Shown here: positions 16,291 to 61,353 of the stretch, one piece after another
How positions within the stretch are numbered: the stretch's first letter is position 1
Layout: each line of letters opens with the position of its first letter
Assembly: GCA_045658965.1 (NCBI GenBank)
Contig: JAZOVZ010000078.1
Coordinates: 1,252 to 65,251, forward strand
Reading direction: 5' to 3'
Source of the DNA: Eubacteriales bacterium
Lineage (GTDB): Bacteria; Bacillota; Clostridia; Oscillospirales; CAG-272
Length of the DNA: 64,000 nucleotides
Notes under the pieces: model-generated
Databases searched by the model: none
Told to the model about the DNA's origin: nothing
What the model saw: the letters and a program-made list of their open reading frames with translations, nothing else
Made by a program: the position numbers and the translations under genes

Positions 16291-16634
16291 GTGCTCGCTT
16301 GCTGTTTGCGCGAAGCGCAACATCGTTTACGCCGCAGGCGTAACATCATTGGGCGATAGCCCACATCATTTGCGACTTGTCGCAACATCGTTTATTTGTG
16401 CCGCGGTCAACAAGAAAAGCACCAAGCCGACTGGCGGCACTAGGGTACTCGCCTGCTGTTTGCGCGAAGCGCAACATCGTTGATGCGAAGCATCACATCA
16501 TTGCGAAGCACATCATTTGCACGAAGTGCAACCTCGTTCATTTGTGTCCGCCTGCGGTGGAATGATGTTGACCTTCGGTCAAATGATATTGCGTGCAAGC
16601 ACGCAAATGATGTTGTGTCCTGCGGACACAAATG
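16291..16634. repeat. hairpin-plus-ACATCRTT word array (two sub-arrays, the second with an inverted half)
   Basis: ACATC(G/A)TT occurs at 16320, 16343, 16363, 16385, 16474, 16495 and 16510, with a degenerate copy at 16531. AATGAT(G/A)T occurs at 16561, 16582 and 16606. Each word is separated by a different 5-6 bp stem hairpin such as TGCGCgaaGCGCA and TACGCCgcaGGCGTA. Confidence 0.85.
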
Positions 16635-16668
16635 AAAAAATCCTGAAAGCAGAGCTTTCAGGATTTTT
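16635..16668 (-). terminator. intrinsic terminator downstream of tRNA-Gln (also usable from the + strand)
   Basis: AAAAAATCCTGAAAGCagagGCTTTCAGGATTTTTT: a perfect stem flanked by A and T runs. Confidence 0.8.
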
Positions 16669-17942: not shown

Positions 17943-18638
17943 ATGAAGCTCGGCATTTTTACAGATGCGCACTATTCGTCCGCGCCTCTAACGTGCGAAC
18001 GCAGATACAACAATCAATCCCTGCGCAAGAACAAGGAGGCTTACGCCTATTTTGCCGCCGAGGGATGCGATCTGATCGTGTGCTTAGGTGACCTGACCGG
18101 CTCGGAAGCTACCATGGAGCAGGAGATCAACAATCTTGCAAACATTGCCGCCGTCATGCACAGCACCCCCATTCCCACGGTCTGCTTGATGGGAAATCAC
18201 GACGCCTACGCCTTTGAGCGCGACAAATTCTTTGACATCCTCGGCATTCCCCAAACCGATGAGCTACACATGCAAGACCGCCGACTGCTGTTTTTGGATG
18301 CCTGCTACTCCAAGGACGGCAACCCTTACACCCCCGGCCGCGTGGATTGGAAGGACACGTTCTTCCCCGACGAGGACGGTTTGCGCCAAAAGCTGACCGA
18401 CGCCACCGAGGACACGTACGTCTTTGTACACCAGAACATCGACCCCGCAGCAGATCCCGCTCACAGAATCCATAACGCGGACGCGCTTTTCGCCATGATC
18501 CATCAAAGCGGCTGTGTTAAAACCGTGTTCCAAGGGCACTACCACCCCGGCTGCCGCTCGGAATACCATGGCATTGGCTACATCACCCTTCCTGCCATGT
18601 GCGAAAATGAATTTGCTTATTGGGTGTTTGAGATCTAA
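17943..18638 (+). CDS. metallophosphoesterase family protein
   Basis: Calcineurin-like motifs: DAH (FTDAHY), GDLTG, GNHD and a late GHYH. Confidence 0.85.
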   Translation: MKLGIFTDAHYSSAPLTCERRYNNQSLRKNKEAYAYFAAEGCDLIVCLGDLTGSEATMEQEINNLANIAAVMHSTPIPTVCLMGNHDAYAFERDKFFDILGIPQTDELHMQDRRLLFLDACYSKDGNPYTPGRVDWKDTFFPDEDGLRQKLTDATEDTYVFVHQNIDPAADPAHRIHNADALFAMIHQSGCVKTVFQGHYHPGCRSEYHGIGYITLPAMCENEFAYWVFEI

Positions 18639-19973: not shown

Positions 19974-20792
19974 TTACCTCATTTCATCATCCGCCGTATA
20001 AAAGCAATCAAATTGCCATCTGATCGGGTTTTCGTAAATGTATTTGGCGATTTGTTCATAATCCTCGCGGTTGCGGATAATGTGGTCGTGGAATCCACGT
20101 TGCCATATGGTTGAATCTCCAAATCGTTTGTGAATCTCTTTCGAGGCATTCATTTTGATATATCCAACCATTTTCGAAATCACTGATCGACCACGTAGGG
20201 GCGATTCACGAATCGCCCGCGCATCCATGGTATCCGTAATCACAATAATCAAATGAATATGATTGGGCATAATTACATAACTATCCACAAAAGCAGAATA
20301 ATTATCGGGAATATGGCTTATTACCCCGGCAATAATTTTCCCGTATTCGGTTAATTGAATGGGGGATTCTTGTGTTGTCCCAACAACATGAAGGGCGACA
20401 TTCTCCGCGGGCGATTCGTGAATCGCCCCTACGGCGTTGTGGGGATTGGTTTCGGCGGGCGATTCGTGAATCGCCCCTACGGTGTTGCGAGGATTGGTTT
20501 CCGCGGGCGATTCGTGAATCGCCCCTACGGCGTTGCGGGGATTGGTTTCGGCGGGCGATTCGTGAATCGCCCCTACGGTGTTGTGGGGATTGGTTTCGGC
20601 GGGCGATTCGTGAATCGCCCCTACGGTGTTGCGGGGATTGGTTTCCGCGGGCGATTCGTGAATCGCCCCTACAACACGCGATAGGGTGCATTTTTTTCGA
20701 TGCGTACATATGGTAATGAAATACGCTCCCGGGCTGCTATAATCGAAATCCTTAAGACGTAATCTTTTACGGATCGGCAATTTGTTCTCCAT
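19974..20792 (-). CDS. REP-associated tyrosine transposase-like (IS200/Y1 HUH family) protein with an internal 6x16-aa tandem insertion
   Basis: N-terminal FDYSSPGAYFITICT, HUH motif MPNHIHLII and C-terminal YIYENP tyrosine motif. VGAIHESPAETNP(R/H)N(T/A) is repeated six times in frame. Confidence 0.8.
   Translation of the reverse strand: MENKLPIRKRLRLKDFDYSSPGAYFITICTHRKKCTLSRVVGAIHESPAETNPRNTVGAIHESPAETNPHNTVGAIHESPAETNPRNAVGAIHESPAETNPRNTVGAIHESPAETNPHNAVGAIHESPAENVALHVVGTTQESPIQLTEYGKIIAGVISHIPDNYSAFVDSYVIMPNHIHLIIVITDTMDARAIRESPLRGRSVISKMVGYIKMNASKEIHKRFGDSTIWQRGFHDHIIRNREDYEQIAKYIYENPIRWQFDCFYTADDEMR
20195..20220. repeat. REP-like palindrome inside the RAYT-like gene
   Basis: GTAGGGGCGATTCacGAATCGCCCGC, with 8-bp arms GGCGATTC/GAATCGCC. 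It encodes AIRESPL on the minus strand. Confidence 0.8.
20404..20671. repeat. 48-bp tandem repeat, 6 copies, each containing a REP-like palindrome GGGCGATTCgtGAATCGCCCCTAC
   Basis: Palindromes start at about 20409, 20457, 20505, 20553, 20601 and 20649, an exact 48-nt period. They lie in frame within the CDS. Confidence 0.95.
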
Positions 20793-39635: not shown

Positions 39636-39833
39636 ATGGCAGCCCTGCAAAACAAAAAGCCCGCAAACTGCGAGAGCTGTGAATTTTACGACTACGACGA
39701 GGAATACGACGCATACGTATGCTTAGTATCTCTTGACGAGGACGATATGTGCGATTTTCTTTCGCACAACACGGGACATTGCCCGTATTATCGGTTCTAC
39801 GACGAATATAAGAGCGTGCGGAAGCAAAATTAG
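39636..39833 (+). CDS. small Cys-rich protein (65 aa), unknown function
   Basis: MAALQNKKPANCESCEFYDYDEEYDAYVCLV...HCPYY. It has its own promoter, RBS (GTGAGG) and terminator. Confidence 0.6.
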   Translation: MAALQNKKPANCESCEFYDYDEEYDAYVCLVSLDEDDMCDFLSHNTGHCPYYRFYDEYKSVRKQN

Positions 39834-39850
39834 CGTGATGCGCTAATTTT
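39826..39850 (+). terminator. intrinsic terminator overlapping the stop codon
   Basis: AAAATTAGCGtgaTGCGCTAATTTT. Confidence 0.7.
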
Positions 39851-40062
39851 GCAGTTATATTCGCCTTTGGCGAGTGATATGCACAAGTGCGTGGTATTGC
39901 CTTCGGCAGTGATATGCGCTTCGCGCGTTAAGCATACAAGGCGAATATAATATCACTGCAACCGGCGGGAGCAATATCACTACGAGCGATGCGAGTAATA
40001 TCACGCCGAGCTGTGCAAGGCATATCACCTTGATTGCATATGTGACCACAAATGCAGAGCTT
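39851..40062. repeat. hairpin-plus-GTGATAT/ATATCAC word array with two-fold symmetry
   Basis: GTGATAT at 39873 and 39908, with degenerate GTGGTAT at 39890. ATATCAC at 39949, 39973, 39997 and 40021. Variable short hairpins lie between words. The outer/central inverted repeat is TATATTCGCC/GGCGAATATA. Confidence 0.85.
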
Positions 40063-40071
40063 GTAAAGAAA

Positions 40072-40103
40072 AGAGGACAGAGAACGTAAAAATTCTCTGT
40101 CCT
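40072..40103. terminator. bidirectional terminator
   Basis: GAGGACAGAGAA...TTCTCTGTCCTT flanked by A and T runs. Confidence 0.75.
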
Positions 40104-40180
40104 TTTCCTGTCGATAGGCATTTCCTTAATTCATACTGCTCCGGGGCAGACACACCTTGTCAGGTGCTTTTTTCACGGAC

Positions 40181-40651
40181 TTATCCGTTTGCCTTTTCTT
40201 TTTCAATCCTCTGCCTTTTCGCAGCCTCGATCCAGCGCACGGCACCCGTGACCACAATGATCGCCAATGCAATACCCGTACAGATCTTGACCGCTGCCAG
40301 CATGTTTTCCATAAACAAAGCCTGCTCGCCGCTGAACAGATAGAACATGGTATAATACAATCTGCTTCCCGGCACAAGCGGCAAAAGCGTGGGGATCATA
40401 AAAATGGTCGTAGGCGTTTTGAGCACGCGTGCCATGATCTCGCAATATACGCACGGCACCGCGGTCGCAGCCATGTTGGTGATCAGCGGATCAAGCCCGA
40501 TCGCATCCCCGATCAGCATGATGACGCAGGAAATGGTGCTGCCAAGCATTGCCCACGGCAGCTTTTTGGGCGGCACGTCAAAGATCACGGCAATGCCCAA
40601 GAGCGCAACAAAGCACGCAACCGTGCCGTATATGATCTGTCCCCAGTTCAT
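40181..40651 (-). CDS. threonine/serine exporter family protein (ThrE C-terminal-type subunit, DUF3815-like)
   Basis: Five TM helices. Start at MNWGQIIYG behind AGGAGGTG, with ATGA overlap to the upstream subunit. Confidence 0.75.
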   Translation of the reverse strand: MNWGQIIYGTVACFVALLGIAVIFDVPPKKLPWAMLGSTISCVIMLIGDAIGLDPLITNMAATAVPCVYCEIMARVLKTPTTIFMIPTLLPLVPGSRLYYTMFYLFSGEQALFMENMLAAVKICTGIALAIIVVTGAVRWIEAAKRQRIEKEKANG

Positions 40652-41436
40652 AGCACACCTCCTAAGGTCAGCCATGCAAGACCGTAGCCCGCCGCAATGA
40701 TTGCAGCCGTGAACAACGCTTGCACAAAGCGCAAAAGTCCCGAAACCATGTCGCCGCCAAACAAATCACGCAGCGAAGTACCCAGCGCAAGACCGGGGAT
40801 CATGAGCATGATCGTGCCGATCATAATTTCACCGGGATTGGTATGTGGCACGAACCTGCACGCGCCCAGCGCGGCAACGCCCGCCACAAAGGCTGTAATG
40901 AAGGTTTTAAGCGTGCCGTTGACCTTGGCGGGGGTGTACAGTGTAAACACCATGATCAGCACGCCAATGACAGCCGCCACCAAGCCGTCTGTCCAGCTGC
41001 CGCCAAAAAACACGGCAAAGCCGCCTGCGGCAATTGCCGCGCTGAGCAGCATCAGAAAATTCGAGTACGTCTTCTTTTGGCAAATGCGCTTGACCTCCTC
41101 CTTGACCTCCCACGGGTCCTCCGGGCAGGCGCAAAGTCTGCGCGAGAGCGCATTCAGCTTTTCAATGCGGACAAGGCTATTGCCGATATTTCCCACCTTA
41201 CGGATCTGGGTATAGTGGTCGCCGTTAGGCCCCTCCACGGTCACGCCCACCAGCACCACGATGGAAAACACGTCCACGTCGTGCGCGCCGTAGGCAAGGC
41301 AAAGCCTTTCCACCGTGTCCTCTACGCGACGCACCTCAGCCCCCGCCTCCAACAGGCGACAGCCAATGTCCAGTATGGTATCCAACACGTCGTCGTAGTC
41401 ATACGGGAGGATCGTGCTCATTGCTTGCTCTGTCAT
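40648..41436 (-). CDS. threonine/serine exporter family protein (ThrE N-terminal-type subunit, DUF1212-like)
   Basis: 262 aa with a soluble N-terminal domain (LDIGCRLLEAGAEVRRVEDTV) followed by TM helices. Confidence 0.75.
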   Translation of the reverse strand: MTEQAMSTILPYDYDDVLDTILDIGCRLLEAGAEVRRVEDTVERLCLAYGAHDVDVFSIVVLVGVTVEGPNGDHYTQIRKVGNIGNSLVRIEKLNALSRRLCACPEDPWEVKEEVKRICQKKTYSNFLMLLSAAIAAGGFAVFFGGSWTDGLVAAVIGVLIMVFTLYTPAKVNGTLKTFITAFVAGVAALGACRFVPHTNPGEIMIGTIMLMIPGLALGTSLRDLFGGDMVSGLLRFVQALFTAAIIAAGYGLAWLTLGGVL

Positions 41437-47481: not shown

Positions 47482-47712
47482 GCGTACCTGCTCTATGGCA
47501 GGTACGCAACGAAATTTGCCCTTTCGGGCAAGTGAAATCGCTTCGCGGTGAATTATTTGCTTCGCAAATGTGAAATGTCCGCTTACGCGGACGTGGGCAA
47601 TTTTCATTTCACATCGAGCAGAGCGAGATATTTCACAATGTGCGTTAGCACATTATTTCACGTTTTGCAAAAGCAAAACATTTCACTATATGCTTTTGTG
47701 CCCGCAAAAGCA
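47482..47712. repeat. hairpin-plus-GTGAAAT/ATTTCAC word array with two-fold symmetry
   Basis: GTGAAAT at 47532 and 47570, with degenerate GTGAATT at 47548. ATTTCAC at 47606, 47630, 47655 and 47690. Intervening hairpins include AATGTGCgttaGCACATT and GTTTTGCaaaaGCAAAAC. Confidence 0.85.
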
Positions 47713-47821: not shown

Positions 47822-48009
47822 GCTTTTGAGGGTGATATTTTTGCTTTGCAAAAGTGATATTCTTATCCTTGTAGGGACAGGCGTCCTCGACTGTCCGCAC
47901 GGCAAAGTGATATTGCCTACGGCAGTGATATTTTTGCTTTGCAAAAGTGATATTTGCGCGATGCGCAAGTGATATTGCGGCTTTGCCGCAGTTTGACGCT
48001 GCGCGTCAA
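47822..48009. repeat. unidirectional hairpin-plus-GTGATAT array (6 words) with an embedded GTAGGG REP
   Basis: GTGATAT at 47832, 47854, 47907, 47925, 47947 and 47969. Hairpins include TTTTGCtttGCAAAA (twice), TTGCGCgatGCGCAA and TGCGGCtttGCCGCA. The REP GTAGGGACAGGCGTCCTCGACTGTCC lies at about 47871-47896. The last hairpin covers the stop codon of the trpB-like gene. Confidence 0.85.
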
Positions 48010-61189: not shown

Positions 61190-61353
61190 TTGAAAATTTG
61201 CTTGTGCAAATTTTTCCCTTCATATTCCGCAGAAAGCGGAATATTTCACTCGCGCCTTGCGCGAATTTCACTTTTGCGAAAGCAAAAATTTCACATTTCG
61301 CCTATGGCGAAATATTTCATTGCAATGCGGTCAACTTCAGTTGGCTGCATTGC
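61190..61353. repeat. unidirectional hairpin-plus-ATTTCAC array (4 words)
   Basis: ATTTCAC at 61243, 61265 and 61288, and ATTTCAT at 61313. Hairpins are ATTCCGCagaaaGCGGAAT, TCGCGCcttGCGCGA, TTTTGCgaaaGCAAAA and ATTTCGCCtatGGCGAAAT. A terminal longer hairpin abuts the stop codon at 61356. Confidence 0.85.

Follow-up and report, generated by a model that had tools for sequence, protein, structure and literature searches.

Here, we describe a repeat array at positions 39854–40055 of a 64,000-nt stretch of genomic DNA from an Eubacteriales bacterium (assembly GCA_045658965.1, contig JAZOVZ010000078.1, positions 1,252 to 65,251; hereafter, "the window"). The array alternates a constant 7-nt word with small hairpins, in two opposed arms, between two convergent genes. 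It is very probably a gene-less orphan of a family of word-hairpin cassettes of the type that Rfam files as Gut-1, whose full-length members carry a gene for a stand-alone Avd-like protein (PF05635). What we observe directly is family membership, insertion polymorphism, collinearity with gene-bearing cassettes, the existence of intermediates that have lost the open reading frame (ORF), and co-occurrence with PF05635. The array copy itself is decayed and gene-less, most likely derives from a cassette with an Avd-like gene, and gives no sign of a host function. As an explanation of the whole, we moderately favor an orphan cassette copy whose words form a docking array for an Avd-like protein. 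Throughout, G denotes genomes (G000 being the source genome), L loci, C contigs, and X metagenome contigs.

Membership in the Gut-1 family

Gut-1 was found in human gut sequences that belonged to no sequenced organism, and was rated a likely RNA (Weinberg et al. 2010, PMC2864571). Using cmscan, the distal arm of the array (39852–39920, + strand) matches the full Gut-1 model (RF01706, positions 1–77) with 42.5 bits and an E value of 4.4e-7, below the gathering threshold of 50 bits; the proximal arm matches on the − strand (39945–40030) with 22.3 bits. The array has the Gut-1 architecture of four words and three hairpins (W0–W3 and hp1–hp3), with GUGAUAU as a variant word, and the stems differ between homologous copies yet remain paired. 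The word GTGATAT occurs 24 times in the window, as compared with 5.9 +/- 2.7 times in shuffled sequence (~fourfold), and six of these occurrences fall within 155 nt at the array. Judged by model match, architecture and word enrichment, the array is a non-random member of the Gut-1 family, of the variant GTGATAT/ATATCAC word class.

The family is abundant in the source genome. The 2.73-Mb, 110-contig assembly has 86 Gut-1 matches, 36 of them above threshold and many in convergent +/− pairs; two above-threshold matches (62.6 and 55.5 bits) lie elsewhere in the window. A census independent of the covariance model, based on chains of regularly spaced 7-mers, returned words that are nearly all of the type RTGAWRT (GTGATAT 33 chains, GTGAAAT 22, ATGAAAT 18, AATGATG 11, GTGATG 6). 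An earlier note on this DNA had proposed genome-wide recurrence as a check; words and hairpins do recur, in ~85 credible arrays, each of which keeps one word in both arms. Adjacent arms are nearly always convergent (>>>> <<<<), with a single switch of orientation and never alternation, and arms of 4 words form a sharp mode (65/110). Arrays are intergenic in 79 of 82 cases and are depleted in divergent (promoter) spacers, while one-armed arrays are co-oriented with neighboring genes 20 to 8. No recurrent gene family was found among the 127 ORFs that flank arrays.

Further arrays of the family lie in the window at 16291–16640, 47507–47700, 47822–48009 and 61238–61322. Among them are ACATCATT/AATGATGT arrays that adjoin two tRNA genes, a two-armed GTGAAAT orphan (the Gut-1 match of 62.6 bits) with the same tail and a similar downstream terminator, a one-armed, six-unit GTGATAT array, and the Gut-1 match of 55.5 bits. 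The array at 16291 follows the same grammar as the one described here, as had been noted before, and the two belong to one repeat family.

Avd-like cassettes and their probable gene-less derivatives

All six PF05635 genes of the source genome have a word-hairpin array directly upstream. In a sample of 46 PF05635 genes from 25 genomes, with an array defined as at least three regularly spaced words within 420 nt upstream, the association holds for 36/46. A TTGNNN-17-TANNNT promoter is located 45–53 nt before the start codon in 28/46, and in most of these 28 promoters the −35 box abuts or overlaps the last word (e.g., ATATCAC|TTGACT or ATTTCAC|TTGAAA). This fixed position ties the array to the cassette promoter. 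By family, the encoded protein is a TIGR02436 member, and its match in the PDB is 2RLD (E 3e-22), an entry of five chains; no match to a defense system was found for it in PADLOC, and no reverse transcriptase, template repeat or variable repeat lies beside these cassettes.

The ATATCAC cassettes of six genomes (G001, G006, G008, G011, G013, G024) are collinear, unit for unit, with the orphan array. The alignment runs from CAGTT(A/C/T)TATTCGCC to the fourth ATATCAC. Beyond this point, the cassettes continue into a promoter, a ribosome-binding site (RBS) and a 118-aa ORF, and the orphan continues into CTTGATT and a tail hairpin. The distal arm is likewise collinear with arrays upstream of Avd-like genes at L029–L037. 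The array itself lacks a PF05635 gene, its nearest ORFs being DUF6472 and ThrE_2, and is therefore classed as a gene-less derivative of the cassette.

A second sample was selected by DNA pattern alone, requiring three ATATCAC words followed by TTGAC. It comprises 13 two-armed elements, 10 of which have an Avd-like gene 31–61 nt downstream. The remaining three (L063, L067, L072) keep the array and −35 box and have no ORF. In L067, the complete promoter and the beginning of the RBS remain, joined to the cassette 3′ tail (GGGT...CCC, GCGTTTGTG-cca-CAAACGC, GAAAC..GCGATAAA), and L072 retains the −35 region and the start of the 3′ tail. The tail hairpin of our array, GCATATGTG-acca-CAAATGC, resembles the L067 hairpin just given as well as that of L034/L042 (GCATTTGT-aata-ACAAATGC); these 3′ hairpins sit downstream of the Avd-like ORF or of its deletion scar. 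In addition, the CTTGATT of the tail occupies the place of the cassette −35 box TTGACT; from the sequence, no −10 box is left after it. Because the array is collinear with cassettes and ends in a hairpin like the cassette 3′ hairpin, we read it as a further-decayed, ORF-deleted cassette. With moderate confidence, both cassette ends (the 5′ array and the 3′ tail hairpin) appear to be retained, the tail similarity resting on a 20-nt hairpin.

Several observations concern cassettes with other contents or words. At G000:C25:50100-52573 and at G008:C116 (L031 + L087), the same GTGATAT array sits between syntenic flanks of ~85% identity with the cargo swapped: behind the array, G008 has a promoter, an Avd-like gene and a HAD-like gene (1226 nt), and G000 has 1041 nt of unrelated DNA with an HTH-methyltransferase gene. 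Avd-like genes with TCATAAC arrays (L053, L061) form their own subclade inside the ATATCAC clade. A divergent Avd-like clade (L023, L027, L039, in G017 and G008) has plain tandem heptamers upstream, ATGCAAA/ATGCAGA, with no hairpins. Two one-armed ATATCAC arrays have distinctive neighbors, as judged by appearance: that at L070:1620-1668, in an Acutalibacteraceae metagenome-assembled genome (MAG), lies between a gene end and a sequence resembling the 5′ end of transfer-messenger RNA, and that at L069:6995-7046 is just upstream of an ORF resembling an extracytoplasmic function-type sigma factor.

Co-occurrence across genomes

Across 41 genomes, PF05635 occurs in 23/23 of those with at least seven Gut-1 matches and in 6/18 of the others (Fisher p = 2e-6). 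Outside the genus of the source organism, the proportions are 7/7 and 6/18 (Fisher p = 0.005), with a Spearman rho of 0.82. Within the genus, genomes that encode an ATATCAC-clade gene have 29–68 GTGATAT triple-word matches, as compared with 0–28 for those that do not, the source genome with its 57 excepted (Mann-Whitney p = 0.007). The protein tree clusters by word, with 14 label changes versus 33 for shuffled labels. In the literature on the word, on hairpin-array repeats of Clostridia, and on PF05635/TIGR02436, we found no link of Gut-1 to Avd-like genes.

Insertion polymorphism and junctions

The orthologous spacer between ThrE_2 and DUF6472 was retrieved from 16 related species with 80–96% protein identity. 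At five of these loci (L014, L016, L009, L003, L004), it contains a bare short terminator. Other orthologous spacers carry different repeats, and that of L010 carries an array of another word class; at L008, in another species, there are AGTTATGA/TCATAACT word-hairpin arrays. In the window, the block between the DUF6472 stop codon and ThrE_2 is 347 nt (39833–40179), and one related contig has a 40-nt terminator in its place: metagenome contigs from related strains join 39832 to 40180 via this simple 40-nt terminator, and also join 39829 to 40066. Because related species hold only a short terminator at the site, the comparison identifies the array as an insertion. The site in relatives is thus empty and does not hold a decayed gene, which settles another check proposed in the earlier note. 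Depth over the array exceeds that of the flanks 10- to 20-fold, in keeping with a sequence present in many copies. An exact-protein look-up of ThrE_2 returned no record of other strains.

The nearest copy in the same genome is at C103:61-321, with 84.7% identity over 262 nt. The similarity includes the hairpin T2 (Table 1), which is also common to C56 and occurs without the array at the orthologous site in L002 and the X2 contig. The terminator module AAAAGGACAGAGAA..TTCTCTGTCCTTTT, preceded by GCTTGTCAAGAAA (window 40056–40106), recurs beside orphans (C103, C56, C61, C25:3667, C78:48965); given its array-free occurrence at L002 and X2, it may be a separate repeat module. A genome-wide search with the tail motif GCTTGTCAAGAAA returned mostly noise, because the motif is the reverse of ordinary TTGACA −35 boxes.

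The left junction has a distinctive structure. In the junction hairpin T1, the 5′ arm consists of the DUF6472 gene's native end together with the stop codon; KSVRKQN* and most of the bases are kept in array-free relatives. The 3′ arm, CGCTAATTTT, repeats the 5′ arm in inverted form and is missing from all empty sites (L014, L016, L009, L003, L004, X4). Similarly, the genome's own cassette on C27 (~18537–18567) has TGCAAATAATC-gca-GATTATTTGCA built on the stop region of its upstream gene, and its empty site in a 98%-identical relative, L088, is without the 3′ arm. The pattern looks like an inverted target duplication made at insertion, a lead offered by two verified cases. Several more junction hairpins enclose the stop codons of long ORFs (C8, C28, C56, C62, C80, C90). 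A direct duplication is not visible at 39830/40065 or 39832/40180, where the empty sites compared are only ~88–90% identical.

Anatomy of the array

The earlier note had proposed two opposed arms, with three units of hairpin and GTGATAT (one degenerate) followed by four units of ATATCAC and hairpin, between convergent genes; this layout stands, with DUF6472 (+) and ThrE_2/ThrE (−) as the flanking genes (Table 1). The units are where it placed them, except that its positions are one base low, as fits counting of the 8-mer AGTGATAT/AATATCAC. In the proximal arm, ATATCAC recurs with a period of exactly 24 nt, in agreement with Tandem Repeats Finder.

Table 1. Coordinates of the array and its flanking features in the window.
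Feature	Position	Strand	Remarks
DUF6472 gene, 65 aa	39636..39833	+	Upstream flank; TAG stop codon 39831-39833; PF20076, E 3e-23
Junction hairpin T1, AAAATTAGCG-tgatg-CGCTAATTTT	39826..39850	+	Overlaps DUF6472 stop codon; directly 5′ of the element
Distal arm	39854..39926	+	Portion modeled by Rfam Gut-1
W0 GTTATAT, then hp1 TCGCC-ttt-GGCGA	39854 (distal arm)	+	Read from the sequence
W1 GTGATAT, then hp2 GCAC-aa-GTGC	39874-39880 (distal arm)	+	Read from the sequence
W2 GTGGTAT (degenerate), then hp3 TGCC-ttc-GGCA	39891-39897 (distal arm)	+	Read from the sequence
W3 GTGATAT, then hp4 GCGC-ttc-GCGC	39909-39915 (distal arm)	+	Read from the sequence
P1 long-range helix, 5′ strand (TATATTCGCCTT)	39856..39867	+	Overlaps W0 and hp1 5′ arm
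Center GTTAAGCATACAAGGCGAATATA	39927..39949	+	Degenerate word GTTAAGC, linker, P1 3′ strand AAGGCGAATATA at 39938-39949
Proximal arm	39950..40028	+	Four ATATCAC (39950, 39974, 39998, 40022) and three 17-nt hairpins
Tail CTTGATT and hairpin GCATATGTG-acca-CAAATGC	40029..40055 (hairpin 40036-40055)	+	Compare L067, L034/L042
T2, bidirectional terminator-like hairpin AGGACAGAGAA...TTCTCTGTCCT and T-run	40074..40106		Repeated module
Decayed ancestral terminator of both convergent genes	40147..40175	-	AAAAGCACCTC..GAGGTGCTTTT in relatives; compared with L014, L009, L002 and the 40-nt filler of the X4 contig
ThrE_2/ThrE gene	40181..40675	-	Convergent downstream flank; PF12821, E 6e-27

The suggested pairing of the left boundary with the center is borne out. 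TATATTCGCC(TT), at the outer flank, is fully complementary to (AA)GGCGAATATA in the center, over 12 nt as compared with ~5 nt for shuffled centers. The resulting helix, P1, closes the first arm and is present in the minimum free energy (MFE) fold. Its 5′ strand overlaps the 5′ arm of hp1, so that only one of the two, P1 or hp1, can form at a time. P1 covaries between copies (TCTATTCGCC/GGCGAATAGA, TTTATTCGCC/GGCGAATAAA, TATATTTGCC/GGCAAATATA). In most two-armed copies, such a helix joins the center to the outer flank of the short-hairpin arm; its sequence differs by family (TATATTCGCC, TCTATTCGCC, TTTATTCGCC, TATATTTGCC, CAAATCCGTCTTC, TAAATCCGTCCT), and the partner strand changes to match. 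Folding of both strands, which the earlier note had recommended, gave z = −7.55 and −7.40 relative to shuffled sequences, with an MFE fold that consists of P1 and local hairpins; pairing of words across the arms was rejected as the main fold on these grounds.

Two hairpins do flank the array, as previously described, at 39826–39850 and 40074–40106. T2 alone meets the definition of an intrinsic terminator; T1 has a 4-T run that lies mostly inside its own stem. The seven unit hairpins end in a word and not in a T-run, so the proposal that termination does not explain the array holds.

Genome-wide, the spacers between words form a stem of at least 4 bp in 239/324 cases versus 14/324 for random segments. 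Among spacers with a stem of at least 3 bp, 234/285 are perfect palindromes from end to end, and the modal stem is 6 bp. Spacers are mostly 9–20 nt, a range that puts the words out of helical phase along a DNA duplex. Read in the RTGAWRT sense, the loops are TTC, TGC, TTT, TTGC, TAC and TTAC; on the complementary strand, these become GAA, GCA, AAA, GCAA, GUA and GUAA, i.e., GNA triloops and GNRA tetraloops. Stem mismatches are almost exclusively tandem T·C/C·T, corresponding to tandem 5′-GA/3′-AG on the complement, which is the strand with the GNA loops. HP6 has a canonical internal loop of tandem sheared-type G·A/A·G (tac-GA-gc gat gc-GA-gta), HP5 (A·A, A·G) and HP7 (G·A, A·A) have degenerate forms of this motif, and tandem GA is kept in homologous hairpins of other copies. 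Wobble pairs are nearly absent: in 216 hairpins, there are 2 G·T on one strand and 6 on the other (8 in total).

The two arms differ in the strand that bears these features. Among 21 gene-linked elements, the sense strand of the gene-proximal arm has 17 GNA/GNRA loops and no TNC loop, and that of the distal arm has 18 TNC loops and no GNA loop. Because the GNA loops sit on opposite strands in the two arms, the arms are mirror images down to their loops. For the distal arm, the asymmetry of both loops and mismatches favors the strand opposite to the Rfam orientation.

Two other candidate identities for the array were rejected. Divergent promoters in the center are ruled out: TATAAT at 39946–39951 has no −35 box and is missing from other word classes. 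A clustered regularly interspaced short palindromic repeat (CRISPR) array is also ruled out, as the architecture is the inverse (a constant 7-nt word, variable palindromes, and 4 units per arm), and no CRISPR match above noise was found.

A proposed mechanism

A complete cassette consists of a junction hairpin, a distal arm of 4–5 words, P1, a proximal arm of 4 words, and a gene module. The gene module comprises a sigma-70 promoter, with its −35 box in contact with the last word; a ~118-aa gene, whose product is an Avd-like four-helix-bundle protein (PF05635/TIGR02436); and a 3′ hairpin. Orphans would arise by loss of the ORF with both ends kept, in the way that MITEs (miniature inverted-repeat transposable elements) derive from transposons. 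Within each arm, the 7-nt words would be displayed single-stranded and in register between snap-back mini-hairpins, such that the arm serves as a docking array for an Avd-like oligomer, the two arms being read on opposite strands. In gene-bearing copies, docking would tie the protein to the promoter region of its own gene. Orphans, by this account, lack autonomy: they would be bound or propagated in trans, and no gain for the host is evident.

The geometry of the array bears on how the words might be recognized. Because spacer length varies by more than one helical turn, the words cannot share one face of a duplex. By contrast, hairpin formation puts the words in register at any stem length, which points to recognition of a folded single strand. 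The mirror loops, the tandem GA on one strand, and the scarcity of wobble pairs fit opposite-strand DNA or self-templated stems better than one functional transcript. That the protein binds the words at all is a tentative proposal, and one we consider somewhat doubtful; if binding does occur, recognition as DNA is marginally favored over recognition as RNA. Avd, the characterized member of the family, forms a basic barrel of five subunits, one surface of which binds RNA (bioRxiv 10.1101/2023.10.23.563531).

Several points weigh against the docking account, or against parts of it. The oligomeric state of the Avd-like proteins is assumed from relatives. An equation of the pentamer with five words was considered and dropped, as the modal word count is 4, and no stoichiometric match is claimed. 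The clustering of proteins by word could come from linkage alone. Neither a target-site duplication nor a transposase was found for the array, and its mobility is read from presence/absence alone. The source genome has 57 GTGATAT triple-word matches and no ATATCAC-clade gene in a 96%-complete assembly, the best paralogue being 57% identical; orphans thus persist without a cognate gene. Two of the genome's own cassettes, C27 and C62, have no promoter between the array and the RBS. In these two, the array would sit in the mRNA leader, which fits a role as RNA. Metatranscriptome contigs cover arrays at high summed depth, which likewise agrees with such a role. Lastly, nothing in the proximal arm corresponds to P1, which leaves the two-fold symmetry imperfect.

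A bolder version of the cassette model seems unlikely to us, namely, that word-hairpin arrays and a stand-alone Avd-like protein constitute an undescribed, minimal selfish element that lacks a transposase and whose arms are read, on opposite strands, as folded single-stranded DNA. Here, each round of propagation would form the hairpins anew by fold-back (self-templated) synthesis. If true, a selfish single-stranded DNA element would explain the mirror GNA loops, the tandem G·A and the near absence of G·T; fold-back synthesis would explain stems that diverge freely yet stay perfectly paired, as well as the inverted host copy at the left junction; and orphans would be non-autonomous relatives of the element.

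Alternative explanations

The strongest alternative is that the array is a structured non-coding RNA, as Rfam's filing of Gut-1 implies, transcribed as the 3′ untranslated region of DUF6472 or by read-through, and acting as a stable small RNA (sRNA), a protein sponge, or a processing substrate generated from the paired arms. We consider this improbable. The match to the Gut-1 covariance model, the rating by Weinberg et al., the very stable fold and the covariation of P1 all speak for it. So do the position of the element right behind a co-directional gene, together with the orientation bias of one-armed arrays, the leader position in the C27 and C62 cassettes, and the binding of RNA by Avd in diversity-generating retroelements (DGRs; bioRxiv 10.1101/2023.10.23.563531). 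However, the 8 G·U pairs in 216 hairpins are unusually few for structural selection on RNA. Moreover, since the arms are reverse-complementary down to their loops, any transcript would have one GNA arm and one UNC arm, and the gene's own promoter lies downstream of the array in 28/46 cassettes. The 86 copies per genome and the presence/absence polymorphism are the behavior of a repeat element. The RNA evidence itself comes from Logan metatranscriptome contigs of multi-copy sequence, which give no strand, ends or single-copy normalization, and every carrier identified is a MAG. For the C56 cassette (L081:590-765), summed contig depth over the array (up to ~1300) is 10–40 times that over the adjacent Avd-like gene in four metatranscriptome assemblies, gut and bovine, a ratio confounded by multi-copy mapping.

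A host-beneficial hairpin stack is decidedly improbable. In this scenario, the array would insulate convergent genes, block read-through or protect mRNA 3′ ends, and would have spread by its usefulness. Arrays are indeed enriched downstream of genes and rare in divergent promoter regions, their hairpins are stable, and the array described here is flanked by terminator hairpins and brings T2 along. Yet U-tracts are missing from the mini-hairpins, a single 30-nt terminator suffices for relatives at this site, and the constant word, the count of ~4 words, the mirror arms and the link to PF05635 are left unexplained.

Still less probable is the likeness suggested in the earlier note, to repetitive extragenic palindromic (REP) sequences and bacterial interspersed mosaic elements (BIMEs), here taken as elements moved by a REP-associated tyrosine transposase (RAYT, a Y1 HUH enzyme). 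The arrays are intergenic, hairpin-rich repeats found in both orientations, and the genome has both separate REPs of GTAGGG type and a Y1_Tnp-like protein (G000:C37:1916-2248, 63 bits). As membership, the likeness fails: variable stems with a constant word are the reverse of a REP, the orientation changes once and does not alternate, and Y1_Tnp does not track the arrays. Outside the genus, the association of Y1_Tnp with Gut-1 has a Fisher p of 0.38 and a rho of 0.29; G027 (34 Gut-1 matches) and G036 (29) are without Y1_Tnp, and G016, with 0 matches, has a strong one. RAYT/Y1 was therefore rejected as the mobilizing enzyme on the basis of its phylogenetic profile in the 41 genomes. The Y1_Tnp (RAYT-like) ORF, of 257 aa, probably partners the GTAGGG-type REPs, not the word-hairpin arrays.

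A decayed coding sequence, or a short repeat protein encoded by the 88-aa ORF at 39855–40121 (−), can be dismissed. In its favor, the reading frame runs uninterrupted through the array and the 24-nt period is divisible by 3. Against it, the ORF has no Pfam match, relatives with intact flanking genes lack the region, other copies show spacings not divisible by 3, and the same sequence sits upstream of promoters in cassettes.

Relation to known systems

Like Gut-1, the array has four U/GUGAAAU-type words, three short hairpins and variable, compensating stems, in gut Clostridia. Unlike the Gut-1 model, its word is GUGAUAU, and its score falls below the cut-off. The Rfam model covers a single arm, entered as an sRNA gene "from human gut only"; in the source genome, that arm belongs to a dispersed, two-armed repeat with 86 matches. 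The filing also differs from our findings in that the GNA loops and tandem GA are on the strand opposite to the Rfam orientation, and full copies are linked to PF05635.

MITEs, pneumococcal BOX elements and Neisseria intergenic mosaic elements (NIMEs) are dispersed in intergenic regions as short, gene-less, modular copies with inverted arms, and vary in presence between genomes; MITE-type copies derive from a longer, gene-bearing form by internal deletion. The array resembles these elements in being short, gene-less and modular, in having two inverted arms, in its probable derivation from a gene-bearing form, and in its polymorphism among relatives. Unlike MITEs, the parent cassette encodes only an Avd-like protein and no transposase, no clear terminal inverted repeats with a target-site duplication were found, and the arms are made of word and variable palindrome in place of conserved sequence.

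REP/BIME sequences are, similarly, high-copy extragenic palindromes, clustered close to the ends of genes with both orientations represented; in REPs, the palindrome is conserved and has a 5′ GTAG, the orientation alternates, and there is dependence on a RAYT (Nunvar et al. 2010, PMC2817692). None of these three features is found in the arrays, whose conserved part is the 7-nt linker word.

The intervening sequences (IVSs) of 23S rRNA in Coxiella and Leptospira (S23p; PMC4990558) are also small, selfish insertions in a hairpin context that encode only a PF05635-family protein and have ORF-less versions. Unlike IVSs, the array occupies a gene 3′ end/terminator and not an rRNA helix; the comparison is with IVSs as described, and word-hairpin arrays are not described there.

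Lastly, the cassette protein belongs to the same superfamily as the Avd of DGRs (bAvd, PDB 4DWL; bioRxiv 10.1101/2023.10.23.563531), a pentameric, basic barrel of four-helix bundles. DGR Avd contacts a structured, cis-acting RNA beside its own gene; by analogy, the partner in the cassette may be the repeated word array. Unlike DGR Avd, however, the cassette protein is tied by phmmer to 2RLD and not to 4DWL.

Implications and additional observations

Gut-1, which Rfam has carried since 2010 as an orphan "RNA" of human gut samples without an assigned organism, partner or function, is one of the two arms of a dispersed repeat, and this repeat accounts for a visible part of the intergenic sequence in uncultured, Oscillospiraceae-like gut Clostridia. 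The repeat moves or is lost between species, and its full form carries a stand-alone Avd-like gene. To our knowledge, the PF05635 family has had no explanation outside DGRs and rRNA intervening sequences. Two orphans, Gut-1 and the Avd-like protein, thereby gain a testable partner. On the practical side, many arrays lie at contig ends (C9, C75, C10, C48, C72), indicating that they break assemblies, MAGs among them, and below-threshold Rfam matches of this kind are better annotated as repeats.

Other repeat features were recorded. Some arrays in the source genome are amplified (C32:10502-10837; C93:29916-30218), one with seven identical ACATCAT-tgggcgcaagccc units and another with a three-unit higher-order repeat. 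The window also contains, at 20407–20672, 5.5 tandem copies (94% matches) of a 48-nt unit that includes a GTAGGGGCGATTCACGAATCGCCC-type REP palindrome; this repeat class is distinct from the arrays.

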